From contig CM119372.1 of NCBI GenBank assembly GCA_051294905.1, positions 32,428,001-32,492,000 of the forward strand: a DNA stretch of 64,000 bases. Direction: 5' to 3'. Source of the stretch: Botryllus schlosseri. Taxonomy: Eukaryota. Shown here piece after piece: positions 2,324 to 62,239 of this stretch. Under the pieces are notes generated by a model. The model searched no databases, had not been told where the DNA came from, and saw only the letters and a program-made list of their open reading frames with translations. Both the position numbers and the translations under genes were made by a program. Every line of letters starts with the position of its first letter. Position 1 is the stretch's first letter.

Positions 2324-5300
2324 TAGGGTTGTCCAAAATTTGAAAAATTTCGAAAATGCTGCGTTGTAATGTCTTATTCTATAGATTATTGATTAAAAAC
2401 ATCAACAAGCCTGAAAGAAGCTCTCAGGAACGTCGTTAAGATTTCTTACAAAGCGTTTGAAAGTAGCCGTCTGCATGTGGGCGGGGAATCGATGAAGTGG
2501 GCGGGCAATCACGAACCTAGAATTTTGATTGGTTGGAACCTGTAATAATAAGCTACTGATTGGCTGAAATACTGATTTTGTGATCATTGCTGGTCACGAT
2601 TTCGTTCTACTCTGTTGTGTTGGTTTGCAGCCATTTCTGTTCGTGGCATTGGCGATATGGTAAATTGACGTTGTTAATGCTGCCATCGACAACAGCATAA
2701 CGATCCAGTAATATATTTTCTACCTGAACACTGTGTATAACAGTTTTGTTACTTCTTGCACAGGAGCTTGGCCAATTAAGATAAGAATGAACTAGATGCA
2801 TGCATCGTGCTACCTTCGAGCCTTCTAAAACATACCAGTTGACAACGACTGTAACTCATAAATTGCAAACCAGTAGTCAATTTCTCCTTATGGCTTGTTA
2901 TGGTAAGTCGACGTCTCTCTCTAAAACGAACGCATATTACACTTTTTATTCAAGATTTAACAAAGGCAAAAATGCTATTTACAAAAGGCATCATTAAAAA
3001 GTATATCGCAGGGTCAGTGTTGCAGATCACTGGCCTTTGATAAGAGTAGACTTCCTGCTGTCTCCAAAAATCTTCCTATGCTGTTCCACAGCTTGAAGCA
3101 AACTGTCTCTTTGCTGTTCATTGTCAGTCAAGATTGCAGCATAGTCTGTGCTTAGCTTGACACCTCTTTCTGCGGCATCATTAACGACTTTGACAGAACT
3201 AACGTAGCAATTCATTTTATTGAATGAATCTGAAAAGTGCCAATCATCAACCGGTTGACGCAGCCAATCCCCAGAGCATTCAAAAACTTCAAATATGTAC
3301 CACGACTGGGGCCCAATAAGGTCAGACAACGTACTGTCCTTGTTGATCTGTATAGTTGCATTCAATGAGGGTGGGCCCCTTCTGAAACTGGAAGTTCGCT
3401 CTACTTGCAGGAGCGCCTTTGCCATATTTTCCCGGGTTTCCTTGCTTTCCGTCGGTGAAAACAAGGCGTATACAGCGGTTTCCTCAACAATATACCAGTC
3501 GTGCTTCAAAAGCTTTCGTGAAGCAGCTGTGGAAACTTGCTCATCATATTCCTTATAACTCAACATGTGCTGAACGAATCTCAAGTCATTACCAGCTGCA
3601 TCACGACCAATGCTTGAATCCACCCACGCAGGGATATAAAAGAGAACCAAAAATAAATTGAAGCGGCGCAGCAGTTCAACTTCTTCAGATTTGTAATCTA
3701 ATTGGTCGGCCCACATGAACATCTTTTGAGCATACAGAATTGTACCCATCCATCTCGCATGGTGTGCTGCACCAGGTTTGTGATGACGTATATCTTCATC
3801 TGCACCGAGAAGAGCAAGAGCATTAGTCACACATTGCTTGTAGTCATCCCGTGTGAAAAAATCTTTTCTGTTCAACAGTAGCTTGAACTTATCAACTATC
3901 ATTGCAGCTCGTTCAGCAAAACATAGAGGAATAGTCAGAGTCTTGAATTGCTGTTCCCTGTCAAGACTGCTCCAGTTCCTTTTAAGGTGGGCAAACCATG
4001 CATTCTCTGGTCCAGTTGTGGCCTTTCCAAATAAAGATTTCCAAACGTCTTTCACTACCAGCTCATACACATGGTGCCGACATGCATGGTAGAACACCTT
4101 CCTTCCTAGAAGGTCTTCAAGAATCTTTGCCGCACCCTTCTTCCAGCCGCTGTTGCTTGCTGTAGTGTCAAAAACCAAAGCTGTTACAGCATCTTTTATA
4201 TTCCAACTTTCAATTATGTTGAAAGTGGTTTCTGCTTGCGTCTGACCTGCAGCATTTTGCATCTTTTGAATGCCAAGTAGTTTTCCTTCTGAGTATTGAG
4301 GATGACAAGATAGGACAATTGACAGAGCCTCATACCGATTTCCTAATCTATCCTCTGTGAGCTTTCCATCCCAATGAATAGCAACATGTTGAGGTTAATT
4401 TTTCTGCAAATTTTTCTGAAATATCCTTGGAAATTTCAAGACGATTTGTTTCCCTGGCTCTCTTTGTCGAAGATCTTGACAGAGAGAACATTGCTATGTC
4501 ACCGCCACAAGCCGTAATAAATGCTCCGATCAGCATTGTTGCCTTGTTGTCTGTTATTTGCAATCGATCCAGAGCTTGGGACACATGGGTATTATTCATA
4601 ATATTTTTAGGTGCCATCAGCTTAATGGCTGTCGAGGTGCCAAGACCAACATCAGCATCATAATCAGAACTTGAACTCAAACTATCACCCTCTTTTGAAG
4701 ATGAAGAAGATGCTAAAACAACATAGTCATCACTTGAGTCATGTTGAATGTTTTTAACAGTTCTATCCGCCATGGTTGCTGTTTTCTTTTCGATGTCTTT
4801 AGCGAGAATCTTGTCTCTTCCCAACATTATGCATTTGCGAGATTGCTGTTGATCTTCATAGAATGCAATGTCTTCGAGCTTTCTATCATGTGATAGATAA
4901 ATGTCATTTTGTATTATTGCTATCGCATCTGTACTTCCAATATCCCACAACGTGTCCAAATCTTCCGTGAATTTTTTCCTCTTACCCTTGGGATCACTTT
5001 CCCGTTTCATGGTCGCCTTCAGAAAAATATATTTTTTGTTCAGTTTTTCAAGTAATTTCACCGCATTTCCTTTAAGTATTGTGGCAATTCTCGCCATTTG
5101 CCACACTGTCATAACATCATGAACCACCACATTACATAGCTCACGAGTAGGGGTTGACTGAGGGCAATGGTCTTTCAGATGCAGAAAGTAACTCATTACT
5201 TCTCGCAAGGTTGGTAATCTCGAGCCACAGATGTAATCGCAAGCATATCCGACCAAGTAATGCTCAGATCGAGATCTTGTTCTTCTCTGTGGCAAGTGCA

Positions 5301-6028
5301 CAGTCTTCCGCCGTTTTGCCTCTGCCATGACAGTAATATTTTTGCCTTCTATCATAAATTACAGCTACGCCTAAAACATTTAAGTAACAAGTGTTACATT
5401 ACGACTATTAACTCACCAACCCACAATGCCCTTGTACATAACCACAACCACTACTAACAAAATCGACCTCATCAGAACAGAAAATGCTGCTGCAACTAAA
5501 ACATTGAGCAAGGAACAAGTGTTGCATTACAACTATCGATGCATCAACCCACAATGCGCTTTACAAATTCCCGTCTCTACTAACAGACTCGACCTCCGCA
5601 AAACAGAAACTACTGCTACAACTGATACATTCGAAGAACCACTGTTACATTACTACTATTGACTCATCAAACCACAACACGCTTTTACAGTATTACAGCC
5701 GTCACCAACAGACTCAGCAGCAGCAAAACCTACTTCTTCTGTCAAACACGGTGAAGCACCCAAATCAGAGCTGACAGCCGCCGTCATCATTGAAGCATAA
5801 CCGATTACCCAATCAAGAATCGTGGTTTCGTCATTGCCCGCCTAGTTGCAATTTCGCCGTCGGTGGCCCGCCCACTCTTTGGCAGCTACTTTCAAACGCT
5901 TTGTAAGAAATCTTAACGACGTTCCTGAGAGCTTCTTTCAGGCTTGTTGATGTTTTTAATCAATAATCTATAGAATAAGACATTACAACGCAGCATTTTC
6001 GAAATTTTTCAAATTTTGGACAACCCTA
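2324..6028 (-). mobile_element. hAT-superfamily (hATm-like) DNA transposon, 3,705 bp
   Basis: 144-bp TIRs (2324-2467 and 5885-6028) starting TAGGGTTGTCC; exact 8-bp TSD ATATTCAT (2316-2323, 6029-6036); internal transposase. Confidence 0.93.
3027..5355 (-). pseudogene. hATm-type DDE transposase, split by a single +1 frameshift near 4395
   Basis: ORFs 4348-5355 and 3027-4262 join into 775 aa if one base is removed at ...AAATTAACCTCAA. Restored frame reads PQHVAIHWDGK...FDTTASNSG...CRHH...VVNDAAERGV, i.e. DDE triad plus CxxH motif of hAT transposases. Confidence 0.88.
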
Positions 6029-45500: not shown

Positions 45501-46878
45501 CTCTATTTGTAATTAATCCAAAATTTTCTATGATAGTAGTAACGCTCCGGCGGCTATTTCGGGAGCTGAGCAGGAAAGCTGACCTTTTTTTAGTCATCCA
45601 CCTGATAATCTGAAATAAAAACTGTACCTCTACATAAACATGCACCTGTTGATTCTCTATCAGCTGGTATCTAGACGTGAATTCGTTGGTTCTGTATCAG
45701 CTATAAGCTAATTCAGGATTGAATACATAAGTTGAACATGACTTCAATGCTGAGACTTGGACTCGGACTCGAGTCATAACACTATGACTCGGACTTGACC
45801 CTTTAAACGGTGACTTGGACTCGGACTCGACTCGGTGATGAATTGAAAATGACTCGACTTGACTCGAGTCAATACCACTAAAGTAAAATTGACTCGTGAC
45901 TCAGAACCGTGTGACTTGGTTACAACCCTGCCATGCTCCAAGGAAAGTAGGCCTACGTCCGGACAGTAGAGGCCTATTTACAATAGAAAAGCCGAAGGAT
46001 TATCCTACTACCAAATGATCCTAATCCTAAGAGTAGGCTTGATGACTTCTTAGTCCAAGGACGTTATCAACTCTTAGAAAGTTCCACCAACCTGGCACTT
46101 ATAATGTGAAGCGCATTTCAAGTCGCACGGCGTCAGATCAATGCATTTTACTTCATCATCACATACGAGCTGCCGCTGTACGAGACACGAACCATTGAAT
46201 AGGTTGTATGGATTGAGGCAGCTGAAACGGTAGTAATCGAGGCTAATTCATTGCGCAGCAGTTCATTCTCTGTTTGGTACCACAACCTGGCGATCCTAAG
46301 CACATCATATTTAGTATAAGTTCACTCTTATCTCGAAAAGTTCAAAAGGCCAATTTTATGATTTAATGTCGATTTACATGTGTTGATATTCTTCTGCAGG
46401 CAAGGGACTTAGCATGACCAATTATAAAAACGCGTACATTTCTAATATAGTCTCAAATGCGATACGCAGCAAAGAGTATTCTTTCTGGCTCCGAAGGAAT
46501 AGCGGGATTCAAAATATGATGCCAGCTGCTGCGGTAGCGGCGGTTCCAAAATTGAACATGGCAAGACCTTGCTCGGGGCGCCGCAAAGACAAATGTAAAT
46601 TGCATATGTCACGGATCCCCACTTTGGCAAATTGGGAATGCAAGTGAAGTTGTTTCACCGAATGGCGAACCAATGTAAGACTACCTTCAAATTTACGAGG
46701 GAAGCGGAATACAGAAATATGAAGTGGAATATGGGCATATACCTCTGCCATTCCGCGAACTGGTCGAATAAGGTAGAGTGAGACTTCTCATCGCTGCCGT
46801 CACCGCAGTCGTCCGTCCCGTCGCAGAATAGATCAATTTGAATGGCTCGGCCGTTTCGACATTTGAATCTTTGTAAAC
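18121..46878 (-). CDS. Multi-exon LDLa-repeat class A GPCR (RXFP/GRL101-like 7TM, no LRRs); 17 exons traced, 5' end incomplete
   Basis: Exons all have GT-AG boundaries and compatible phases, totalling 2,852 nt. About 10 LDLa modules (CDGxxDCxDxSDE-like), then 7TM motifs [26 protein letters not shown] typical of LGR/RXFP receptors. Confidence 0.9.
18584..18846. mobile_element. MITE with 35-bp perfect TIRs in the last GPCR intron
   Basis: ATATCGTCGCAGTGGAATCAAAGTGACTTATGTCC and its reverse complement. Confidence 0.85.
19093..19582. mobile_element. Degenerate hAT-like MITE with ATCCG subterminal repeats
   Basis: Many AATCCG/ATCCGA units at both ends; right end GCCCATCACTG; left end and TSD not clear. 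Confidence 0.55.
19679..19881 (-). CDS. GPCR exon, ECL2 Cys plus TM5 ([13 protein letters not shown]...[16 protein letters not shown])
   Basis: Acceptor ttttcag, donor gtacag; phase 2 to 1. Confidence 0.9.
21896..21992 (-). CDS. GPCR exon, extended ECL2 ([32 protein letters not shown])
   Basis: Acceptor cgacag, donor gtgaga; phase 1 to 2 is required to join the flanking exons. Confidence 0.8.
22581..22824 (-). CDS. GPCR exon, TM4 and start of ECL2 (PFQS...[17 protein letters not shown]...)
   Basis: Acceptor aaaaag (weaker AAG), donor gttagt; phase 0 to 1; restores the K-PF motif after TM3. Confidence 0.85.
23358..23498 (-). CDS. GPCR exon, ECL1-TM3 (GNYC...[22 protein letters not shown]...[10 protein letters not shown])
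   Basis: Acceptor ttgcag, donor gtgtgt; phase 0 to 0. Confidence 0.92.
23892..24047 (-). CDS. GPCR exon, ICL1-TM2 ([18 protein letters not shown])
   Basis: Acceptor gggcag, donor gtatgc; phase 0 to 0; TM2 motif. Confidence 0.88.
24225..24568 (+). mobile_element. tRNA-derived SINE (MetaSINE-like central domain), antisense in a GPCR intron
   Basis: A box TAGCGTAATGG, B box GGTTCGATTCC, then GGTCAGACCAAAGAC...TGGTA...CCCTGCTTGGCGCTCA and a (CCTTT)n tail. Confidence 0.8.
24883..25044 (-). CDS. GPCR exon, last LDLa half plus TM1 ([15 protein letters not shown]...[23 protein letters not shown])
   Basis: Acceptor ttacag, donor gtgagc; phase 0 to 0. Confidence 0.92.
25671..28002. mobile_element. 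Non-autonomous hAT with (GATTAC)n subterminal arrays
   Basis: CAGACATGGGGT / ACCCCATGTCTG; exact TSD CTTCTGAG. Confidence 0.92.
28797..28925 (-). CDS. GPCR exon, LDLa halves ([43 protein letters not shown])
   Basis: Acceptor acgtag, donor gtaatt; phase 0 to 0. Confidence 0.9.
29415..29513 (-). CDS. GPCR exon, LDLa halves ([33 protein letters not shown])
   Basis: Acceptor ttacag, donor gtacga; phase 0 to 0. Confidence 0.9.
30509..31803. mobile_element. Non-autonomous hAT with Tol2-like ends
   Basis: CAGAGGTG / CACCTCTG termini, dense AAGTA/TACTT subterminal repeats; TSD TCCGTTAC vs TTCGTTAC (7/8). Confidence 0.88.
34362..36460. mobile_element. Non-autonomous hAT (Charlie-type), third layer
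   Basis: CAGGCCTGGGCAA / TTGCCCACCCCTA with GGCCC subterminal motifs; partial TSD, ATAGCC on both sides. Confidence 0.7.
36032..36240 (+). mobile_element. tRNA-derived SINE, innermost layer
   Basis: A box TGGCGCAGTTGG, B box GGTTCGAGTC, non-tRNA body and short A tail. Confidence 0.7.
37386..37538 (-). CDS. GPCR exon, LDLa halves ([24 protein letters not shown]...)
   Basis: Acceptor ttttag, donor gtaaac; phase 0 to 0. Confidence 0.9.
37911..38080 (-). CDS. GPCR exon ([32 protein letters not shown]...)
   Basis: Acceptor cgttag, donor gtaagt; phase 1 to 0; completes the preceding LDLa (DEC). Confidence 0.8.
39206..39279 (-). CDS. GPCR exon, partial LDLa ([24 protein letters not shown])
   Basis: Acceptor tttatcag, donor gtaagt; phase 2 to 1. 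Confidence 0.85.
39586..39734 (-). CDS. GPCR exon, LDLa ([31 protein letters not shown])
   Basis: Acceptor tcacag, donor gtgaga; phase 0 to 2. Confidence 0.9.
40328..40520 (-). CDS. GPCR exon, LDLa ([30 protein letters not shown])
   Basis: Acceptor tttcag, donor gtacat; phase 2 to 0. Confidence 0.9.
40601..41606. mobile_element. Old non-autonomous hAT (Charlie-type)
   Basis: Left end CAGAGATCTCAAACACGCGGCCCGCG; degenerate right end TTTGAGAATCTCGGTG; exact TSD GTATAGAG. Confidence 0.7.
41760..42290 (-). repeat. Dispersed AT-rich repeat; inverted copy at about 26220-26540, fragment near 61115
   Basis: AAAGGAGCTATATTTACCCTATATTTTT and ATTTAAAACAAATGG shared in reverse complement. Confidence 0.7.
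43666..43877 (-). CDS. GPCR exon, Cys-rich linker plus LDLa (EWNDCAPR...[31 protein letters not shown])
   Basis: Acceptor ttccag, donor gtaccg; phase 0 to 2. Confidence 0.85.
44344..45930 (+). mobile_element. Internally deleted hAT (Ac/ZBED-type) with GACTC subterminal repeats and transposase relic
   Basis: CAGGGTTGTAA / TTACAACCCTG; TSD CCATGCAC vs CCATGCTC (7/8); ~44905-45030 reads [10 protein letters not shown] / [13 protein letters not shown] / LVFLKCN (hAT C-terminal domain). Confidence 0.9.
46092..46242 (-). CDS. GPCR exon, divergent LDLa ([33 protein letters not shown]...)
   Basis: Acceptor aattag, donor gttggt; phase 2 to 0 bridges neighbouring exons; Cys-rich; absent from ORF track. 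Confidence 0.78.
46743..46878 (-). CDS. GPCR exon, LDLa ([30 protein letters not shown]...)
   Basis: Acceptor tttcag, donor gtatat; phase 1 to 2. Confidence 0.88.
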
Positions 46879-47060
46879 CTGAAACCACGTGCTGATTTTA
46901 ATCGAATTGATAGCGAGGGAATACAAGGAACTTAGTAAATCTATATGACGTAAGTTCATATACATGCATCGTAGCGTACTGTAGAGCAGATATGTGAACC
47001 TGTGACTGCGGCAGTAGTAGGTATGATCGGTCGCGATTCGTAATGGGCTCTTATGGGTGC

Positions 47061-47540
47061 ACCCGACCGGTGCCGCGAAAACTCGTCCTGAACCGGTGAC
47101 CCTTTCAGACCCCCCTTCCACCCGACCGGTGCCTGGGTTGGTATAGGCATCTCTCGACCGGTAACCCTTTTCGGTATAGGGATCTCTCGACCGGTGCCTC
47201 GAAACTCGTCTTGAACCGGTGACCCTTTTCGGTATAGGGATCACTCAACCGGTGCTAGTATAGCCATCTCTCGACCGGTAACCCTTTTCGGTATAGGGAT
47301 CTCTCGACCGGTGCCTCGAAACTCGTCTTGAACCGGTGACCCTTTTCGGTATAGGGATCACTCAACCGGTGCTAGTATAGCCATCTCTCGACCGGTAACC
47401 CTTTTCAGCATAGGGATCGGTCGCACGCGGCTTCGTTGTTGGCATATCGTACTTTTGGGTATAGACATCTCTCGTGTGGTGGCTTATGGTTGTGTTGACA
47501 TGTCGTACTTTTGGGTATAGGTATCTCTCGACCGGTGTTG
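47061..47540. repeat. Subterminal ACCGGT-rich tandem array (117-bp higher-order unit); mirrored at 59742-60221
   Basis: Unit CTCTCGACCGGTAACCCTTTTC... restarts at 47151, 47268 and 47385; built of short subunits each containing ACCGGT. Confidence 0.9.
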
Positions 47541-47729
47541 AATATGTATCAAGTAAATAGTCACGTGATTGGTTCTTAGTTAATGTGTATATCCCAAATT
47601 ATTTTATATGACCGATTCGAGTTGAGCCCAACGTTTACGGTGAATGCGACTTTAATATATCGTTATTCTTATGGCCGCGGTTGCATGTCGTACTCTCAGG
47701 TATAGACTGCGTTGACATGTCGTAATTTC

Positions 47730-48425
47730 AGTAAAAAGGTGTGAAATAGTTGGATAAATCTAGGAATCAGCCGCATGATAATGTTTTGGTAATTAGTTTG
47801 CGATAGAGCCGGCGTAGACGGCGATTCGAATACCAACAATATCCGCGTTCACAAACTGACGACGATTCGAATACCAACAATAACCGCGTTCACAAACTAA
47901 CACTCCAAAAAGGTGCGAAATATTGGTAAAATCCCGCGATCGCTCACAAGATAATACCTAAGACATAACCATCGCTCGCGACTCGCTGTTACATACATGC
48001 CGATCGTTGACAATGTAATATTTTGGTAATAAGTTTGTCATATAACCGGCGTAGACGGTGACACCAACAATAGCCGCGTTCGCAAACTAACACTTCAAAA
48101 AGGTGTGAAATAGGTTGCAAATCCCACGATCGCTCACGAGATAACACCTAAGACATAGCCATCCCTCGCAACTTGTTGTTACATACATTCCAATCACCAC
48201 AATGTAATATTTTGATAATCAGTATGTCACAGAACTGGATTTCACTGGTAAAATTTAATAAGTAACGAATAACAGAACCGTCGCAGACGGTGATTCGAAT
48301 ACCGACAAATTCTCACTTATTTCTGATCCAACCCTAATCCTCTGTGAAGTTGAGGCTTATTCAAAAAAGGTGTGAAATAATTGTAAAATCCTACGTCGCT
48401 GACACGATAACGCATCAGACATAGC
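47730..48425. repeat. Degenerate ~180-270 bp tandem units in the arm; mirrored at about 58857-59552
   Basis: AAAAAGGTGYGAAATA recurs near 47733, 47907, 48097 and 48364 with shared downstream motifs (GTAGACGG, ACCAACAAT, CGCGTTC). Confidence 0.8.
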
Positions 48426-51400
48426 GATCTAGTTTTAGTACGGTGTCGGAATCCATTCGGGTTCTATATAGGCAAATCCAAATAATCCAAAATGAAATAT
48501 TTGGACTTTGACATAGTCTGAATTGAAATAGATTGACAAACATGACTACCAACTTTCCCGCAGTCCCATTTCGATATTATATGCACATTGATTTGAAACA
48601 AGTAATGAAACATTACAACTCTATTCGCGATCCCGCTTTCCGTTTGTCAAAGAGATATTTTAACATCTTACCATACTCAAAAGAATTCTTCACAACATTA
48701 ACAATTGTTAAAAATCTAGTTTTCACTTACTTGATTATATCACTACAACTCACAAACTTGAATTAATTCATCCTGGCTGTATTCGTATGATCGGTCTTTT
48801 TTATTCGATTGTAAAGGTCGTTACTATTCTGAAGACAAAGTATTTACTAATCGGTACATATACGATTTGACTTGGACATATTATATTTTGAGTATACGAG
48901 ATTTGAATGTCCGAACAATAACTGAGAATTAATTTATCACAATTAAATCCGTATATTACAGCGTAAAAGATATTGGGGGGTCAGCAACTCTGTACGATCG
49001 TAGTTACAACCACATTAACTAATCTACTCAGGTAACTCGTCATGATCATTCCTGAAATCAACACAAACACGACCACTGACTTGAGTTAACCGCGAAACAG
49101 CATCAAGTTTTAAATCCGCTTGCAGCTGACGGATTATTCGAATGCATCGATGGAGAATATTATTGAACTCGTCGGTATTGTTACTTCAACAAATTACATG
49201 ACAAAAAAAAACATTACCGAGATTTTATAAACTAGTCATATTACTCTACACATCTATCAATATCAAAATGCGAGTCATCCAATTTTTCTACTAAAGTAAC
49301 ATTGCACTTTCGGATTCGGTATAGTCATACAAATTGTATTAAATCCAACATCAAAACAAAAGGATTTTTTTTTAGTTTATTGAAATCAAATCATTCGTCT
49401 TCGACTTGTGCTTTTCTAGATTGCAAGCAATAATTCGTTACGAACGAGCTGTAACCAAAGTTAAGAATTCTTTGTGTCCACAGATATAGAAGATGAATAT
49501 AGCTAACACAATCGCGAATCGATGTTTCAGAGTATTTCACGGATGTAATAAACTTGTTAGTGTCGCCTATCTAAAAGTATGCATGCGTTCGATTTCCATA
49601 CCGACTGTTGCGATGTTTAGGATTCGTTTACAATGACCAAGAGTGAGGATTTAACATCAATGTCGTTACTGGAGGTATTCACAACAGAGAATCGAAACAT
49701 TACACAGTGTGAAAATATATCTTTGATATCAAAGCACTATCCCAAGTACACGATTAATACTCAACTCCGTTCACACTTTCTATAGAACGTGCTAAATGTA
49801 AAATATCACGAGGTTGCACTCTAAGACTTTGATCATTACAAAAGTAAATTGAATATGTTTGCTCGACGCATTCAATTCAACTAGAAATGTCTAGTGCACA
49901 ACAATCGTAATATTAAGGAAGTACTTGCTACACTGTAATTCACTAAACGTGTTTTGCATTGTTGTTCATTTGTAGCATTGATTGAAATTGAACCCTCAAA
50001 TAATAATTCCCGACACGAAACCAAACCGCTGAAAGTCGTTACCAACACAAAGAAACACTTTGTACGATGTTTGCCAAATGTATCCTATGGCTAGGTGTAC
50101 TAGAATTATTTGTGTAACACATACACCGACAATGTAATCGAAAATTTTTCCGTTGTCATTCGCTAAAGTAAATGTCATCACAATACTCTGTCACTAAAGA
50201 TCTTACTTGTATCTGATTGAATCACCGATAATTAACTCGCTAAATCAAACCATAAGGAAATTTCACTCACTCATCAGATATGAAACAGCGTCGCTTAATC
50301 GGTGTAGATCGTTTTTCTAAATGCAAATCATACCTGACCAACAGAAAACAATTTTCACTCACCTTGTAATGAAACCAAGTGGCGGACCTTCGTTCAATAT
50401 TTTGTTTGTGTCAAATACTTTGCAATAAACACAGTGGAGTGGTCGAGCTTTACATCAGCAGACTGTAATCTGTAAATCAAGCTTACATCCGACTTGTAAC
50501 TGTATCGTTTACCTAACCGAGTTGTATGCACAGTTTAATATTTTTTGTTATTTGGTAATTGCTGAATATACAACTTCGAAATACTCCCTTGAACGTAATT
50601 TCCATCATCGTAATAATCAAAGTACATTTGTGTCGAATTCGTAACAGCCGACTATGACATGATAAATTTTTGACAAGTTATGCTTGGAAGATTGGTTGTA
50701 TATCACGAAAATAATTACCGCTCATATTGATACTGTTATCCATTGTTCGGTATTTTCAAACGAGTAAAATTTATTACTTGAGTAACTCCGCTTAATGCAA
50801 ATGTAAACACAACCGTCTTTCAACATCACAAAGACATCGATACAAAGTATACAATCAAACGCAACAAGTTTTACTTTTGTAGGTTGTGTATGGTTATCCT
50901 GCATAACTCATTTCTTACCAAAGTCATATGAAATATATTCATGTTACACGAAAATATTCACTCATGCTACAAACCTGTACAATGATTGGTGGTGCTTTCA
51001 AACTGTTTCGATACCTCAAGAACTTTATTGTCTGAATGGTTGTTCATGTATCGTAATAATCAAGTAGTTCAACACAGAACTAGTATTAACAGAAACACCA
51101 GAGTTGTTTACACAAAAGTTTGTATGTGTACAGTATACGAATACCATGTGTAAGTCCAGCACAATTGTGGTATCCATACGAGTTTAGTTAACACAATTTA
51201 CGACACCGAGGTCGCGTCATCTTTCGTAAGACAACAAACCAAGGCTTCAGGATATGTCCATGTCATAGCAATGAATCGGCTACTCCAACAACAGAGTGCA
51301 TATGTTTTCTAGTTACGGTGCTTACATCTTACACACAAATCAATCTACTTTGCTAACGAAAAGTGGTGAGTCATCATATGGTTATCCTCACTAGTAAAAC

Positions 51401-52009
51401 ATACTATCATACAAAATGGTCGTTATAGTTTGCACACCAACGGTACATCGTACAAGTAACAAGTCTCGAGAATCCAGTTATTCAAAAAACGTGAAAGTAT
51501 TTCTACACCAAGTCGTTATGTTGACGAAAGCGTATATTGTAATATCATGATCGATTTGCATTCGTTGGTCACAAACTGTCACTACTCTAAATAATTCTTT
51601 TTCACTCAAACGCATACTTGTCACCATTCGTTTTCATCAAGTACGAGTTCAAGAAACTTACTACGACATGAATTTTTATTTTTATGTTGTGTAAATAGGT
51701 AATAATTAATTCAAGTAACACTATATCAACATCATCGAGTTGTGCTAATAGATTTACATGTGGTCTTGTTCATCGGGACATACAGCACGAACTAACTGTA
51801 GACTCCTCTCTGTTGTACAGCTACTCGGTAATCGAAATGCATTAACATGTAAACAACGATCTTGTTTCGTCACACCAAAAATATGTTCACTATCGCGATA
51901 CTCCGCACAAGACGTGCATAGCCTTTTCACAATCGTAATAGTATACCAACGTCAAGCGATAACGTTTAACAAGACCAACGACACTGAACCCACGACGTTT
52001 ACCTATGTA

Positions 52010-52470
52010 AAATTACCACTTTCACTTGCCAGTCCATCGTTTACCTGACTAAACATATTATTTTCCTTTGGAGATCTGATGTTTACCCAGAGTAAGAAAC
52101 CTTTTTCACTTGGAAATCTATTTTTTCCTTGGCTAACAAACCTTTTTTCACTTGGAAATCTATTTTTTCTCTGGTTAACAAACCTTTTTCCCGGGTAACA
52201 AACCTTTTTCCCTGAGCAACAAGCCATTTTCACTTGGTGGTCCGTCGTTTACCTGAGTAAAAATATCATTTTCCTTTGGGGATCTGGCGTTTACCCGGTG
52301 TAACAATACATTTTCGCTTGGAAAAATACTTTTACCTAGAGTAACTAATCATTTTCTCCTGGGTAACAATCCCTTTTCGTCTGGAAACTATCATTTAACT
52401 GAGTACCAATACCGTTTTCACTTGGAAATACATTTTTTTCCTGGGTAACAATACTATTTTCGTTTTGAAA
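52010..52470. repeat. Degenerate ~40-bp minisatellite in the arm; mirrored at about 54812-55272
   Basis: Recurrent GTAACAAACCTTTTT / CACTTGGAAA / TTTACC motifs. Confidence 0.8.
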
Positions 52471-54097
52471 ACTGACAACCACACCGGTCAATTTGATATT
52501 TTTGTATATTGTTACAACGAACAGTGACGGAAATATACACAGACTACCGGTTTCAGAGTACACCCCATCGGTCGTATCACGTCAATATCATCGGTTAACC
52601 ACATACAATATACTCTTGTACACCGAAATGCACGCTTTGGAAAATTGGACAATAGGCTGCGATAGTTCTGTGATGTCCGGGTTCGTGCTTTAGATTTTCC
52701 AGAGTCAAAATGTCTGAATAAAACACCTCCTCGACGACGGTTGGTATGTGGATAACGGTGTTCGGAAAACGGTTGGATTTATGTCGCCCATTGCGATAAC
52801 AATTCCTGGTCGAGTTTTCCTCCGGCATGTTTGCTATATTGTGTCTTTATTGGTCAATGTATGTCTCGACATTCAGTTTGAAATCGGGTATGATAAAGTA
52901 TGTAACCGGATCCGGATATCAACTCTGAATCGATAAACCAATGAACAATATTCAAAGTAAACATGTCACACCCTGTGTTTCCACGAAAAAATACCATCCA
53001 GACATACGTCGCGCTTGTTTGCCCACATCAGTATACGCGCAAATGGAGGTGTGTGACATTGCATGCAATGTGTTGGTATACAAACATCGATCCACAGACA
53101 TTATCATAGCCGGTAGTTTTGATGTAGATCGAATGTCACCCGATAACAATACCAATAAGCCACATTGCAATGACTCTGAGTCCGTCTGAGCATGACATAC
53201 AGACACACAAACATAGAAACCGTAACATGGGTATTCGCACGACGGTGAAAGTGAACTATACAGCATATACCAGTAGAGTGTTCACAGTCAAATATGCGAA
53301 CCGTGCACAATCATATACCCAGGTTTTTGCTGGATATGTACGAAACCAATAAATCGATACATTTCTTTTCTCTGGACATCAATATTACAATCGCCATTCA
53401 AATGCATCGCTCGAATGTGAGGTTCGTCGGGTGTAAAATCCATGTCAAATAACACCAAAGTGTGTCTTCCGTGTTTTAATATTTCCACCGACGCTTCTTG
53501 CCTGTGTCGTAACACTATGGTGCAGGGACTCGAAAAACGATGGATTGCGAAACTGATTGACATGTTCCTCGATATGACCAGCAGAATTGATGTCAATACC
53601 CTTGTGATGATGTCGTTTCAAAATGTTACCGATCTCTTGTGGCGATGACCGTTTCGAAATGTCACCGGATGAACTGGACCCTTACAAAAGTGTGTTTTTT
53701 GATTGCGTGTGAAATCACGAGGTAGTGTTCTATTGTGGTGTAGGATTGCAGATTCCACAGAAACACACACCTTATTGGATCACAGTATCAGTCCGAGATT
53801 TTCAGAATCACTGTTCACGATATTTACCTGGAGTCGTTATGTGGGAGTAGCGACATCCCGTGATTTAGTGAAAGACTGATCGCAATCATTTCGAGCACCG
53901 TACTTCGATAGTTCACATTGGTCAAACGCTGTACAACAGAAAATTTCGGTGTCGACAACACGACGGATATTGACGATGTATCCAATTGGTCTGGGTGATC
54001 TGTCGGGAGATAGGGTCATGACTATCTTGCAATGTAACAACACGATAACACCATCGAGTAAATCAGCGAACGGTGTCGAAATATCGATGTAATAGCG

Positions 54098-57000
54098 CGG
54101 ACTCAGAGTCATTGCAATGTGGCTTATTGGTATTGTTATCGGGTGACATTCGATCTACATCAAAACTAACGGCTATGATAATGTCTGTGGATCGATGTTT
54201 GTATACCAACACATTGCATGCAATGTCACACACCTCCATTTGCGCGTATACTGATGTGGGCAAACAAGCGCGACGTATGTCTGGATGGTATTTTTTCGTG
54301 GAAACACAGGGTGTGACATGTTTACTTTGAATATTGTTCATTGGTTTATCGATTCAGAGTTGATATCCGGATCCGGTTACATACTTTATCATACCCGATT
54401 TCAAACTGAATGTCGAGACATACATTGACCAATAAAGACACAATATAGCAAACATGCCGGAGGAAAACTCGACCAGGAATTGTTATCGCAATGGGCGACA
54501 TAAATCCAACCGTTTTCCGAACACCGTTATCCACATACCAACCGTCGTCGAGGAGGTGTTTTATTCAGACATTTTGACTCTGGAAAATCTAAAGCACGAA
54601 CCCGGACATCACAGAACTATCGCAGCCTATTGTCCAATTTTCCAAAGCGTGCATTTCGGTGTACAAGAGTATATTGTATGTGGTTAACCGATGATATTGA
54701 CGTGATACGACCGATGGGGTGTACTCTGAAACCGGTAGTCTGTGTATATTTCCGTCACTGTTCGTTGTAACAATATACAAAAATATCAAATTGACCGGTG
54801 TGGTTGTCAGTTTTCAAAACGAAAATAGTATTGTTACCCAGGAAAAAAATGTATTTCCAAGTGAAAACGGTATTGGTACTCAGTTAAATGATAGTTTCCA
54901 GACGAAAAGGGATTGTTACCCAGGAGAAAATGATTAGTTACTCTAGGTAAAAGTATTTTTCCAAGCGAAAATGTATTGTTACACCGGGTAAACGCCAGAT
55001 CCCCAAAGGAAAATGATATTTTTACTCAGGTAAACGACGGACCACCAAGTGAAAATGGCTTGTTGCTCAGGGAAAAAGGTTTGTTACCCGGGAAAAAGGT
55101 TTGTTAACCAGAGAAAAAATAGATTTCCAAGTGAAAAAAGGTTTGTTAGCCAAGGAAAAAATAGATTTCCAAGTGAAAAAGGTTTCTTACTCTGGGTAAA
55201 CATCAGATCTCCAAAGGAAAATAATATGTTTAGTCAGGTAAACGATGGACTGGCAAGTGAAAGTGGTAATTTTACATAGGTAAACGTCGTGGGTTCAGTG
55301 TCGTTGGTCTTGTTAAACGTTATCGCTTGACGTTGGTATACTATTACGATTGTGAAAAGGCTATGCACGTCTTGTGCGGAGTATCGCGATAGTGAACATA
55401 TTTTTGGTGTGACGAAACAAGATCGTTGTTTACATGTTAATGCATTTCGATTACCGAGTAGCTGTACAACAGAGAGGAGTCTACAGTTAGTTCGTGCTGT
55501 ATGTCCCGATGAACAAGACCACATGTAAATCTATTAGCACAACTCGATGATGTTGATATAGTGTTACTTGAATTAATTATTACCTATTTACACAACATAA
55601 AAATAAAAATTCATGTCGTAGTAAGTTTCTTGAACTCGTACTTGATGAAAACGAATGGTGACAAGTATGCGTTTGAGTGAAAAAGAATTATTTAGAGTAG
55701 TGACAGTTTGTGACCAACGAATGCAAATCGATCATGATATTACAATATACGCTTTCGTCAACATAACGACTTGGTGTAGAAATACTTTCACGTTTTTTGA
55801 ATAACTGGATTCTCGAGACTTGTTACTTGTACGATGTACCGTTGGTGTGCAAACTATAACGACCATTTTGTATGATAGTATGTTTTACTAGTGAGGATAA
55901 CCATATGATGACTCACCACTTTTCGTTAGCAAAGTAGATTGATTTGTGTGTAAGATGTAAGCACCGTAACTAGAAAACATATGCACTCTGTTGTTGGAGT
56001 AGCCGATTCATTGCTATGACATGGACATATCCTGAAGCCTTGGTTTGTTGTCTTACGAAAGATGACGCGACCTCGGTGTCGTAAATTGTGTTAACTAAAC
56101 TCGTATGGATACCACAATTGTGCTGGACTTACACATGGTATTCGTATACTGTACACATACAAACTTTTGTGTAAACAACTCTGGTGTTTCTGTTAATACT
56201 AGTTCTGTGTTGAACTACTTGATTATTACGATACATGAACAACCATTCAGACAATAAAGTTCTTGAGGTATCGAAACAGTTTGAAAGCACCACCAATCAT
56301 TGTACAGGTTTGTAGCATGAGTGAATATTTTCGTGTAACATGAATATATTTCATATGACTTTGGTAAGAAATGAGTTATGCAGGATAACCATACACAACC
56401 TACAAAAGTAAAACTTGTTGCGTTTGATTGTATACTTTGTATCGATGTCTTTGTGATGTTGAAAGACGGTTGTGTTTACATTTGCATTAAGCGGAGTTAC
56501 TCAAGTAATAAATTTTACTCGTTTGAAAATACCGAACAATGGATAACAGTATCAATATGAGCGGTAATTATTTTCGTGATATACAACCAATCTTCCAAGC
56601 ATAACTTGTCAAAAATTTATCATGTCATAGTCGGCTGTTACGAATTCGACACAAATGTACTTTGATTATTACGATGATGGAAATTACGTTCAAGGGAGTA
56701 TTTCGAAGTTGTATATTCAGCAATTACCAAATAACAAAAAATATTAAACTGTGCATACAACTCGGTTAGGTAAACGATACAGTTACAAGTCGGATGTAAG
56801 CTTGATTTACAGATTACAGTCTGCTGATGTAAAGCTCGACCACTCCACTGTGTTTATTGCAAAGTATTTGACACAAACAAAATATTGAACGAAGGTCCGC
56901 CACTTGGTTTCATTACAAGGTGAGTGAAAATTGTTTTCTGTTGGTCAGGTATGATTTGCATTTAGAAAAACGATCTACACCGATTAAGCGACGCTGTTTC

Positions 57001-60000
57001 ATATCTGATGAGTGAGTGAAATTTCCTTATGGTTTGATTTAGCGAGTTAATTATCGGTGATTCAATCAGATACAAGTAAGATCTTTAGTGACAGAGTATT
57101 GTGATGACATTTACTTTAGCGAATGACAACGGAAAAATTTTCGATTACATTGTCGGTGTATGTGTTACACAAATAATTCTAGTACACCTAGCCATAGGAT
57201 ACATTTGGCAAACATCGTACAAAGTGTTTCTTTGTGTTGGTAACGACTTTCAGCGGTTTGGTTTCGTGTCGGGAATTATTATTTGAGGGTTCAATTTCAA
57301 TCAATGCTACAAATGAACAACAATGCAAAACACGTTTAGTGAATTACAGTGTAGCAAGTACTTCCTTAATATTACGATTGTTGTGCACTAGACATTTCTA
57401 GTTGAATTGAATGCGTCGAGCAAACATATTCAATTTACTTTTGTAATGATCAAAGTCTTAGAGTGCAACCTCGTGATATTTTACATTTAGCACGTTCTAT
57501 AGAAAGTGTGAACGGAGTTGAGTATTAATCGTGTACTTGGGATAGTGCTTTGATATCAAAGATATATTTTCACACTGTGTAATGTTTCGATTCTCTGTTG
57601 TGAATACCTCCAGTAACGACATTGATGTTAAATCCTCACTCTTGGTCATTGTAAACGAATCCTAAACATCGCAACAGTCGGTATGGAAATCGAACGCATG
57701 CATACTTTTAGATAGGCGACACTAACAAGTTTATTACATCCGTGAAATACTCTGAAACATCGATTCGCGATTGTGTTAGCTATATTCATCTTCTATATCT
57801 GTGGACACAAAGAATTCTTAACTTTGGTTACAGCTCGTTCGTAACGAATTATTGCTTGCAATCTAGAAAAGCACAAGTCGAAGACGAATGATTTGATTTC
57901 AATAAACTAAAAAAAAATCCTTTTGTTTTGATGTTGGATTTAATACAATTTGTATGACTATACCGAATCCGAAAGTGCAATGTTACTTTAGTAGAAAAAT
58001 TGGATGACTCGCATTTTGATATTGATAGATGTGTAGAGTAATATGACTAGTTTATAAAATCTCGGTAATGTTTTTTTTTGTCATGTAATTTGTTGAAGTA
58101 ACAATACCGACGAGTTCAATAATATTCTCCATCGATGCATTCGAATAATCCGTCAGCTGCAAGCGGATTTAAAACTTGATGCTGTTTCGCGGTTAACTCA
58201 AGTCAGTGGTCGTGTTTGTGTTGATTTCAGGAATGATCATGACGAGTTACCTGAGTAGATTAGTTAATGTGGTTGTAACTACGATCGTACAGAGTTGCTG
58301 ACCCCCCAATATCTTTTACGCTGTAATATACGGATTTAATTGTGATAAATTAATTCTCAGTTATTGTTCGGACATTCAAATCTCGTATACTCAAAATATA
58401 ATATGTCCAAGTCAAATCGTATATGTACCGATTAGTAAATACTTTGTCTTCAGAATAGTAACGACCTTTACAATCGAATAAAAAAGACCGATCATACGAA
58501 TACAGCCAGGATGAATTAATTCAAGTTTGTGAGTTGTAGTGATATAATCAAGTAAGTGAAAACTAGATTTTTAACAATTGTTAATGTTGTGAAGAATTCT
58601 TTTGAGTATGGTAAGATGTTAAAATATCTCTTTGACAAACGGAAAGCGGGATCGCGAATAGAGTTGTAATGTTTCATTACTTGTTTCAAATCAATGTGCA
58701 TATAATATCGAAATGGGACTGCGGGAAAGTTGGTAGTCATGTTTGTCAATCTATTTCAATTCAGACTATGTCAAAGTCCAAATATTTCATTTTGGATTAT
58801 TTGGATTTACCTATATAGAACCCGAATGGATTCCGACACCGTACTAAAACTAGATCGCTATGTCTGATGCGTTATCGTGTCAGCGACGTAGGATTTTACA
58901 ATTATTTCACACCTTTTTTGAATAAGCCTCAACTTCACAGAGGATTAGGGTTGGATCAGAAATAAGTGAGAATTTGTCGGTATTCGAATCACCGTCTGCG
59001 ACGGTTCTGTTATTCGTTACTTATTAAATTTTACCAGTGAAATCCAGTTCTGTGACATACTGATTATCAAAATATTACATTGTGGTGATTGGAATGTATG
59101 TAACAACAAGTTGCGAGGGATGGCTATGTCTTAGGTGTTATCTCGTGAGCGATCGTGGGATTTGCAACCTATTTCACACCTTTTTGAAGTGTTAGTTTGC
59201 GAACGCGGCTATTGTTGGTGTCACCGTCTACGCCGGTTATATGACAAACTTATTACCAAAATATTACATTGTCAACGATCGGCATGTATGTAACAGCGAG
59301 TCGCGAGCGATGGTTATGTCTTAGGTATTATCTTGTGAGCGATCGCGGGATTTTACCAATATTTCGCACCTTTTTGGAGTGTTAGTTTGTGAACGCGGTT
59401 ATTGTTGGTATTCGAATCGTCGTCAGTTTGTGAACGCGGATATTGTTGGTATTCGAATCGCCGTCTACGCCGGCTCTATCGCAAACTAATTACCAAAACA
59501 TTATCATGCGGCTGATTCCTAGATTTATCCAACTATTTCACACCTTTTTACTGAAATTACGACATGTCAACGCAGTCTATACCTGAGAGTACGACATGCA
59601 ACCGCGGCCATAAGAATAACGATATATTAAAGTCGCATTCACCGTAAACGTTGGGCTCAACTCGAATCGGTCATATAAAATAATTTGGGATATACACATT
59701 AACTAAGAACCAATCACGTGACTATTTACTTGATACATATTCAACACCGGTCGAGAGATACCTATACCCAAAAGTACGACATGTCAACACAACCATAAGC
59801 CACCACACGAGAGATGTCTATACCCAAAAGTACGATATGCCAACAACGAAGCCGCGTGCGACCGATCCCTATGCTGAAAAGGGTTACCGGTCGAGAGATG
59901 GCTATACTAGCACCGGTTGAGTGATCCCTATACCGAAAAGGGTCACCGGTTCAAGACGAGTTTCGAGGCACCGGTCGAGAGATCCCTATACCGAAAAGGG

Positions 60001-60269
60001 TTACCGGTCGAGAGATGGCTATACTAGCACCGGTTGAGTGATCCCTATACCGAAAAGGGTCACCGGTTCAAGACGAGTTTCGAGGCACCGGTCGAGAGAT
60101 CCCTATACCGAAAAGGGTTACCGGTCGAGAGATGCCTATACCAACCCAGGCACCGGTCGGGTGGAAGGGGGGTCTGAAAGGGTCACCGGTTCAGGACGAG
60201 TTTTCGCGGCACCGGTCGGGTGCACCCATAAGAGCCCATTACGAATCGCGACCGATCATACCTACTACT
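54098..60269 (-). repeat. Right arm of giant inverted repeat
   Basis: Reverse complement of 47013-53184; substitutions noticed at 48473/58809 and 53113/54169. Confidence 0.97.
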
Positions 60270-62239
60270 TGCGGCTCTTTAATGATTGCACAGCACATGC
60301 ATTTCGCTATTTTGCTAGACATGTTTAACCTGATTAGACTGATGCATTCTATCACGTAGGAACAATATACGTATTGTTTTCGTGTTGTTTCTTTCCTTAT
60401 GGTTACGTACAATGTTCCCTCTATTTTTTCAGGAGTCTGCGCGCACTCACCAACTCATTGCGCGGTCCCTTGGACAACAGCGCGTAACGACAAAAAAAGT
60501 AATCACTTCGCGTTATCTGTCAACGGCACAGATTTTTCTGTGCGCGGTGACTCTGTCAGCAATGCGCGGCCGCGCCAGCGCGCAGCTTAGTGGGAACATA
60601 CGTAGGCCTATGCACTTGTTAAATTTAGGGGAAGGTGCACTATAGAGTTAGAACTATATAATTGAACACTCGAAGGGAGTTCACATAAATGTTTGCCCGT
60701 AACAATGGTACATGTTAATCATTCAAGGATAAATCATTGTGTTAAATGATAAACTTTATAATTAATCGCGTCAGCGAAGGTCATGATTATTCCCGGGATC
60801 GCAACGATGAATACGGATCTTCCATTTGTATTGTAAAGGCTAGCAGTAACTTCAGAGTTTAACCAATAAATTGTCGTTGACCGATAATTGCGGGGAAGAT
60901 ACGACATCGAGGTGGTACGCGTTAATAAAAAAGTTGAGAACCTGCACCATGAATTATTAGGAACCGTCACTTTCGTAAGATAACCAAATGAGAATGCCAA
61001 TAGAGAAAGAAAACGCCGATGATAATGATCGAATTGATGCTGGCAATTCTCCGTAACTACTGTACTAAGGTTGTATTGCTCAGGATATACATCTCATTCG
61101 TGCTATTATTAGAGTTGCATTTAAAAAATATGGTGTTTTAAAACACTTTGTTGAAAGTATGCTTTAAACACTGTTTTAAAAATTGCCATTAAAAAACATT
61201 GCGTTTTTTTTAAAGTTGAATATGTATGTCAGATTTGTGTAAATCAGTGGTTCTTAGCCATGTCGCCAGCGCCACCTGGGGACAATTAGATTTCAAAGTT
61301 AGTGGAAACACTCAGGGGCGATATCGGCGGTACTATGGCGTTATGGAGGTGCCGAACAGTACAGATGGTGTAGTAGTTCCCGTAGGGTCACAAAATACTA
61401 TGTTTCTATAAATCCTTGAGTTCTAAATTTACCAATCATCCGCGCTTTGCACGAAATATACCGAGTACCGATGATGTAGTTATGTTTCCACGAATGCAGT
61501 GGTTATACCATATTCCCTCTAAAATGTGCTTTTTATGCTCCATGCGTGTACTTTTAGATAGCTAATTATCCCTCAACGCAGTTCAATCACACTATATAGG
61601 GGTTTTGCCGACAAAATGTTTTGAGCTGGGTGTTATATACTGCAGCACACTGCATCTCGAAATCTGGAAGCGTGATTTTATATACCACTTTTGAGGGCGA
61701 CAGCCATTGGTACAGTACACATGATTAGAAGCTTTCTGAAAAGAATGATAAACTAAATATCCAGGTTTTCGAGAGCTACAAAATTCAACGTCACTAAATT
61801 TGGGTGTGTACATTGGGCTCTCACCTGATAGGCATGCGCCCGTACCCAACAGTTGTTATAAGAACATTGGTTTAATCCCGAAAATAGTACATACAATTGT
61901 CAGATCGGTAATTAGGCGAGTGGTCATCTCGTGCGATTCAAGCGTGAAATATTTCCAATAGTCGCATCCAAACTCGAGAACATCGACCGGACTTTGGACC
62001 TCTACCACATCGTCTTCAGTGCAAACGTTAAAATATGGGGGGGGGGGGGGGCAAACCATGAAAACTTCCGAAATGAAGCGCTGGGAGAATAAAGTATATG
62101 TACCACCGGAGTAAATACTTTCCAAGAACCATGTAGTACGAGCATACGGACGATGGCACCCGCTTTCGTCGACGTTTACGAAATGGAATGGCTGGAACCC
62201 TTAAAATCGTCGTTGGTTCAACAGTTATAGCATGTATAG

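Follow-up and report, generated by a model that had tools for sequence, protein, structure and literature searches.

A palindromic, non-autonomous Polinton family with a conserved loop gene in the genome of Botryllus schlosseri

Polintons or Mavericks are the closest described relatives of the element reported here. Intact vertebrate Mavericks have (AGT)2//(ACT)2 ends, a 6-bp target site duplication (TSD), a length of 12,723-24,620 bp and terminal inverted repeats (TIRs) of 46-1,447 bp, and in the screen that defined them, which required an integrase and a protein-primed DNA polymerase B (pPolB), the median copy number was 8 (Barreat and Katzourakis 2021, PMC8097293). Large non-autonomous forms are listed for zebrafish in the supplement of PMC9341512, namely Polinton-1N1_DR (15,469 bp), Polinton-2N1_DR (11,092 bp) and Polinton-4N1_DR (10,436 bp). 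Furthermore, adintoviruses have been presented as animal Polintons with accessory genes, among them Bcl2 homologues and conserved unknown proteins (Starrett et al. 2021, PMC8502044). Here we describe a 13,257-bp palindromic element of Botryllus schlosseri, found in a 64,000-bp stretch of contig CM119372.1 (assembly GCA_051294905.1; G000:C2:32428001-32492000 in our coordinates, in a genome of 496 Mb) that we call the window. With a probability of about 0.8, we interpret it as a young member of a high-copy, long-established family of palindromic non-autonomous Polintons, having the ends of gene-bearing ‘helper’ Polintons and a selected gene in its loop, and likely both copied and inserted by helper proteins.

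Self-comparison of the window gave one dominant inverted repeat, 47013-53184 against 60269-54098, with 6,172 bp at 99.968% identity, 2 mismatches and 0 gaps (2 x 6172/13257 = 93.1% of the element). Thus, every number in the anatomy given by the original prediction was reproduced, i.e. the lengths, arms, spacer, AGTAGT...ACTACT ends, TGCGGC TSD and the 93% share of inverted repeat. The two arm mismatches (window positions 48473 and 54169) lie one in each arm and are both private to this copy, which indicates that the copy is young. The arm/loop junctions were found to be identical in at least seven diverged copies.

In its (AGT)2//(ACT)2 ends, its 6-bp TSD and its size the element is like the autonomous Polintons, and its length falls inside the 12.7-24.6 kb of intact vertebrate Mavericks; it differs from them by TIRs of 6,172 bp instead of 46-1,447 bp, by having no core genes and by hundreds of copies instead of a median of 8 (PMC8097293). 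With the zebrafish elements, compared by names and lengths alone, it shares being a large non-autonomous Polinton, and because such elements of 10-15 kb are catalogued, the earlier statement that no family of this architecture was described is too strong (PMC9341512). The palindromic build is probably not unprecedented. Kapitonov and Jurka reportedly described Polinton-2N1_DR in 2006 as consisting almost wholly of TIRs of ~5 kb. A more distant comparison is given by Foldback (FB) elements and miniature inverted-repeat transposable elements (MITEs), which are likewise non-autonomous, with long or dominant inverted repeats and internal tandem repeats, but differ in TSD length, in their ends and in being moved by cut-and-paste transposases, MITEs being also far smaller.

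To describe the family, the genome was searched with different parts of the element. A degenerate end motif gave 860 forward and 850 reverse matches and 0 + 0 with a reversed-pattern control, so that these matches are not due to chance. A search with the first 400 bp yielded 573 candidates (40 scored), for the most part as inverted pairs at distances of 8-18 kb, and with the loop there were 966 (40 scored, 87-100%). An exact 6-bp TSD was present in 13 of 15 pairs taken from the 400-bp end search, one further pair differing by one base and one having a damaged end. As a second sample, 20 end pairs on contig C1 were taken in contig order from the first 100 end-motif matches listed, without a first cluster that was ambiguous and without pairs spaced by more than ~19 kb. 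Here, 18/20 pairs showed identical 6-bp TSDs that differ between copies, 16/20 showed arm pairing over at least 5.4 kb, and all 20 had at least 2 kb in common with the window element at mean identities of 75-90%, while an open frame longer than 214 aa was found in none. The search with terminal sequence that had been proposed for the element therefore recovered other palindromic copies with TSDs of their own. Intact copies cluster at 13-15 kb, and shorter ones with TSDs exist (7.9 and 9.6 kb). Since there are ~855 end pairs and ~100 gene-bearing copies, the end motif being matched by some of the latter only, we estimate ~750 palindromes or more; at ~750 copies of 13.5 kb, the family would amount to an estimated ~10 Mb or ~2% of the genome. 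At G000:C1:16768420-16810257 three end pairs are nested in one another, i.e. family members insert into each other.

The same end search also revealed candidate helpers. Among the matches to the first 400 bp, the pair G000:C13:23253663-23269681 is non-palindromic and encodes a 1,295-aa PolB (PF03175, E 3.4e-7), an integrase with rve and chromo domains (E 1.8e-16), a P-loop ATPase whose homologues carry PF04665, and a 409-aa capsid-like open reading frame (ORF) whose homologues are named F54H12.2-like and which we take to be the major capsid protein. In addition, a 167-aa ORF shows, by eye, a His-Asp-Gln-Cys protease-like motif order; its best PDB match is a viral cysteine protease at a non-significant E of 0.23. 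Whole-genome profile searches missed these helpers (0 matches for PF03175, 1 for PF04665). Of 298 genome candidates for the capsid-like ORF, 102 were scored, giving 103 matches; about a dozen of these stand at 78-79% and most at 96-100%. Gene-bearing copies measure 15.7-17.7 kb. A second family of gene-bearing Polintons (L083-L090) has a capsid-like ORF 78-79% identical to the first and AGTAGT ends, with no similarity to the window element.

The palindrome and the C13 copy are 91.5% identical over bases 1-406 and 85% over bases 496-599, and a gene-bearing copy on C14 reaches 82-84% over bases 1-462. Regarding target sites, pyrimidine-purine (YR) stands at TSD positions 3-4 in 16/18 palindrome TSDs, against a background of 25%, and in 5/6 gene-bearing copies. 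Since both element types prefer YR at these positions, the palindromes and the gene-bearing copies point to one kind of integrase. Altogether, a Polinton with PolB, integrase and shared termini, as sought by the original prediction, is present in the genome, and the ends and 6-bp TSD of the palindrome agree with those of co-resident gene-bearing Polintons, in line with the proposed non-autonomous palindromic derivative. From these sequence comparisons, mobilisation in trans by helper proteins appears likely.

The element had been described as gene-less. Its loop holds, however, an intact and conserved ORF of 91 codons, the substitution pattern of which is that of a gene under purifying selection. 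Loop substitutions among 38 copies are codon-periodic, and the cluster of the 91-aa ORF, present in 24/37 elements, has the joint-lowest ratio of nonsynonymous to synonymous substitution (dN/dS, 0.32) of 33 ORF clusters. Two loop lineages align without gaps along the 91-aa protein at 57% amino-acid identity. Searching the genome with the gene yielded 1,182 candidates; among the 150 best, a set biased by this choice, 143 were free of stops; all five other frames of the gene contain stops. Between three loop-gene groups dN/dS was 0.24, 0.21 and 0.13 at synonymous divergences (pS) of 0.59-0.72, and within them it was 0.45, 0.16 and 0.28, all from pooled pairs that are not independent. Copies with loops reduced to 332-350 bp exist, in which no match to the gene was found. 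The gene is therefore likely dispensable in cis, and its product is likely an accessory acting in trans. The second lineage has a further ORF of ~53 aa in its loop region (L035:6761-6919, minus strand, and relatives), with a pooled dN/dS of 0.32 over 8 elements; it is absent from the window copy.

The 91-aa protein had no match in Pfam, PHROGs, PDB sequences or the Atlas, and no relatives in the metagenome or viral contigs searched. Five homologues with 56-82% identity lie on short contigs; two further matches were set aside as tandem-repeat proteins. Of two fold models, the first reached a predicted local distance difference test score (pLDDT) of 42 and the second, all-beta, of 74. The model resembles alpha-crystallin and CS domains weakly (best Z 5.7, root-mean-square deviation 3.5, 66 aligned), and the small-heat-shock-like matches by Foldseek are weak as well (E 0.02 or worse). 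This likeness to alpha-crystallin and small heat shock proteins is a modelling lead and no more, and that the protein would be a small protein-binding beta-sandwich acting on helper or host proteins is our best guess, though a speculative and weakly held one.

Genes of a third loop-gene group, ~50% identical, occupy both arms of other palindromes, 15.4-16.6 kb long, which have only AGTAGT-type ends and the 91-aa gene in common with the window element. In several of these palindromes each arm also contains a Bcl-2 gene (PF00452, E about 1e-21). Palindromes with different AGTAGT-type ends and the 91-aa gene in both arms are L155/L156 (G000:C4:14690770-14707349), L157/L158, L167/L168 and L165/L166; a 172-aa Bcl-2-type gene occupies both arms of L155-L158 and L167/L168. 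The arms of the palindromes L161-L164 (G000:C2:27.21 Mb; C11:0.33 Mb) contain a 274-bp tandem array; these elements also carry a 184-aa Bcl-2 gene and the 91-aa gene near the centre. Unlike in adintoviruses, the accessory cargo here sits on enzyme-less palindromes (PMC8502044).

These sister families bear on a possible extension of our interpretation, in which the element would be a true polintovirus satellite, replicated by the helper and packaged in helper capsids, with the loop protein aiding the hijack. The same small gene is kept by families otherwise unrelated in sequence, some with Bcl-2 in each arm, and the window family is a lineage apart, which has a conserved gene of its own and shows no relation to most of the helper. 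Although they are mostly non-coding, the copies of 13-15 kb and the sister families of 15.4-16.6 kb are close in size to the gene-bearing copies of 15.7-17.7 kb, and near the constrained Maverick size range reported in PMC8097293. Nevertheless, no expression was seen in the RNA run X23, the TSD-bearing copies of 7.9 and 9.6 kb are shorter, and size could reflect descent. We therefore hold the satellite only tentatively, with the balance somewhat against it. Equally tentative is the proposal of a distinct class of hairpin-genome Polinton satellites that would be copied, inserted and packaged by polintoviruses, several-fold commoner than these, with the 91-aa protein as hallmark and a mismatch gradient as footprint of a panhandle.

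Insight on how the arms stay alike came from comparing relatives. Differences from the window copy are mostly mirrored in both arms in 15/15 relatives; examples of mirrored vs one-arm differences are 472 vs 2, 247 vs 2 and 251 vs 5, the weakest case being 538 vs 168. Identity along the arm shifts blockwise from about 65% to 100%, and the mirroring extends to these recombinant mosaics. Among 19 clean palindromes, isolated arm mismatches numbered 148, none recurring in another copy. The loop-proximal tenth of the arm contains 38 of these against 14.8 expected (chi-square p about 1e-8), and mismatches within 700 bp of the loop occur in 14/19 copies. Both alleles were present in other elements for 3/40 inner and 1/107 outer mismatches (p 0.06). 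One-arm insertions and deletions persist in several copies, arm divergence in clean copies ranges continuously from about 0.2 to 2.7 substitutions per kb, and the short helper TIRs behave likewise. The simplest reading is that each round of mobilisation makes the arms equal and that decay follows.

Mechanistically, the protein-primed polymerase of a helper would copy the palindrome, and the displaced single strand would fold up as a panhandle or racket with 6.2 kb of stem and 0.9 kb of loop, by which a duplex origin would be re-created. Repair or re-synthesis along the stem may then let one arm template the other in each round, less fully beside the loop, before the helper integrase inserts the copy. 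Racket or panhandle intermediates of this kind are modelled for Polinton replication, where a racket-shaped single strand copied by pPolB was proposed (PMC4196379), and panhandles are invoked for homology restoration in adenovirus and PRD1 (PMC11886824), in these accounts without direct evidence.

The identity of the arms could also be kept up after insertion by gene conversion in the chromosome, as in sex-chromosome palindromes, with no arm-to-arm templating in transposition. Long perfect inverted repeats lend themselves to intrachromosomal conversion, and weaker correction beside the loop would be expected in this case too. However, the persistence of one-arm insertions and deletions, the divergence continuum and the like pattern of the short helper TIRs speak against it, and the absence of any mismatch common to copies is as expected if arms begin identical and then decay. 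Gene conversion as the main cause is accordingly unlikely.

Concerning the interior of the element, the longest stop-to-stop frame wholly within it has 109 aa. Neither a protein-primed PolB gene nor an rve integrase gene was found in it by inspection of frames, by tblastn with the helper ORFs (no significant match among those listed) or by tblastx. For ATPase and capsid genes, profiles of 25 ATPase and 54 capsid-like homologues scored no higher than reversed controls. Weak tblastn matches (E 0.06-0.9) suggesting remnants of an ATPase in the loop and of a capsid gene in the arm were rejected, as the profiles did not support them; the loop signal was traced to the 91-aa gene. Past the first ~600-720 bp, comparison of the window copy with the Polinton part of 12 gene-bearing copies, drawn from two families, showed no significant nucleotide match (its matches in L071 and L090 fall in the ends of neighbouring palindromes), and tblastx against two gene-bearing copies showed no translated match beyond the ends. 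In several relatives, 170-290 bp still match the 3' end of the helper protease-like gene at 67-73% identity, and in one relative 184 bp match the region before PolB at 87.5% identity.

Copy-back defective viral genomes are made afresh from helper sequence. The original prediction had drawn a close analogy to them, and the element does resemble copy-back or snap-back genomes in being self-complementary, in its helper-type ends and in its dependence on a helper. A recent copy-back origin from the present helper, by template switching of the polymerase and without an own gene, would account for a perfect palindrome with helper ends and for the protease-end relics of relatives. In contrast, ~90% of the arm is without significant match to the 12 gene-bearing copies of two families, the ATPase and capsid profiles find nothing above the reversed control, lineages 75% apart have the same architecture, and the own gene is selected. 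As a recent origin this is largely refuted and very improbable: the analogy breaks down over a stable, old mosaic lineage of mostly non-helper sequence, with its own gene and chromosomal integration. For the more remote past, the preferred reading would have the protease-bearing end of an ancestral Polinton folded back, followed by long independent evolution and module swapping.

Finally, an assembly or long-read fold-back artefact, although giant near-perfect palindromes are a known class of such artefacts and no record spanning the whole unit or an empty allele was among the joints listed for sequencing runs, is hardly credible in view of the exact TSD in unique flanks, the dozens of copies with different TSDs, the two private arm mismatches and the recurrence of interior pieces, at 95% identity or better, in sequencing runs from other samples and studies, one of which bears another species label.

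Several observations weigh against the interpretation as a helper-mobilised family with a selected gene. Helper ends are diverse and the palindrome end motif is matched by only 4/8 gene-bearing copies of family 1, so that these copies are candidates for the actual helper lineage. The loop gene was found in 0/12 gene-bearing copies and not near Polinton core genes at 6 further loci, and the dN/dS of 0.45 inside the window's own lineage (again from pooled, non-independent pairs) indicates weaker selection there than between lineages. In RNA run X23 (~6% read, 95% likeness) depth was zero between 53338 and 54004 and close to zero across much of the element. The protease relic of the relatives is not detectable in the window copy, where this region scores within the shuffle range. 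Moreover, a panhandle alone does not homogenise arms and a repair step must be assumed, and as presented in PMC11886824 panhandles are without direct evidence even in PRD1 and adenovirus.

The features of the locus are collected in the table below. The 41-42-bp array near the loop, a candidate cis element, can be aligned in 35-36 of 38 copies, whereas both gene-bearing copies tested lack its motif. The ~180-bp direct repeats had no significant match in the gene-bearing copies tested, and no Rfam match was found in 46900-54200.

Table. Positions of the palindromic element, its parts and the nearest host exon in the window.
Feature	Position	Strand	Remarks
Host LDLa exon	46780..46878	-	splice acceptor ~130 bp from element
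Left TSD TGCGGC	47007..47012	+	6-bp; pyrimidine-purine at positions 3-4, like most family and helper TSDs
Left arm, begins AGTAGT	47013..53184	+	6,172 bp
Helper-like terminal region	47013..47611	+	mirror copy 59671-60269; compared with gene-bearing Polinton G000:C13:23253663-23269681
Sub-terminal 58/117-bp tandem array, inside helper-like region	47141..47418	+	
Two ~180-bp direct repeats, spacing 190 bp, 84% identical	47873..48238	+	
41-42-bp repeat array near loop	52016..52465	+	mirror copy 54817-55266
Unique loop, 913 bp	53185..54097	.	
Intact 91-aa ORF (P0080) in loop	53288..53563	-	purifying selection, from substitution pattern; predicted small all-beta sandwich
Right arm, reverse complement of left, unit end ACTACT	54098..60269	-	6,172 bp
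Right TSD TGCGGC	60270..60275	+	

Left of the element lies a host gene (window 18124-46878, minus strand) with at least 5 LDLa-type exons and a rhodopsin-family seven-transmembrane (7TM) exon. No exon of this gene was located upstream; the insertion is likely intronic in this LDLa/7TM gene. If transcribed, the element would yield a 6-kb RNA duplex. On the right flank, window 60410-60600 contains a short dispersed repeat also found beside several unrelated loci. Elsewhere in the window, two adjacent long ORFs of 455 and 336 aa (3030-5358, minus strand) look by eye like a DNA transposase gene, with no significant Pfam match.

In the literature searched, no description of palindromic Polinton satellites was found, and for the zebrafish non-autonomous Polintons a conserved loop gene, arm homogenisation and gene sharing across families were not found described. 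What appears to be new is thus the combination of several hundred young palindromes that outnumber their helpers, a selected orphan gene that unrelated families of palindromes have in common, Bcl-2 cargo in the sister families and a mismatch gradient towards the loop.

In conclusion, hundreds of elements that are 93% stem provide a natural and countable read-out of arm-to-arm templating, in the form of mirrored variants and a fall-off of correction towards the loop. The family also defines the cis sequence needed by a Polinton, and screens demanding integrase and pPolB overlook such elements. With its own conserved protein, it may parasitise a virus-like element.

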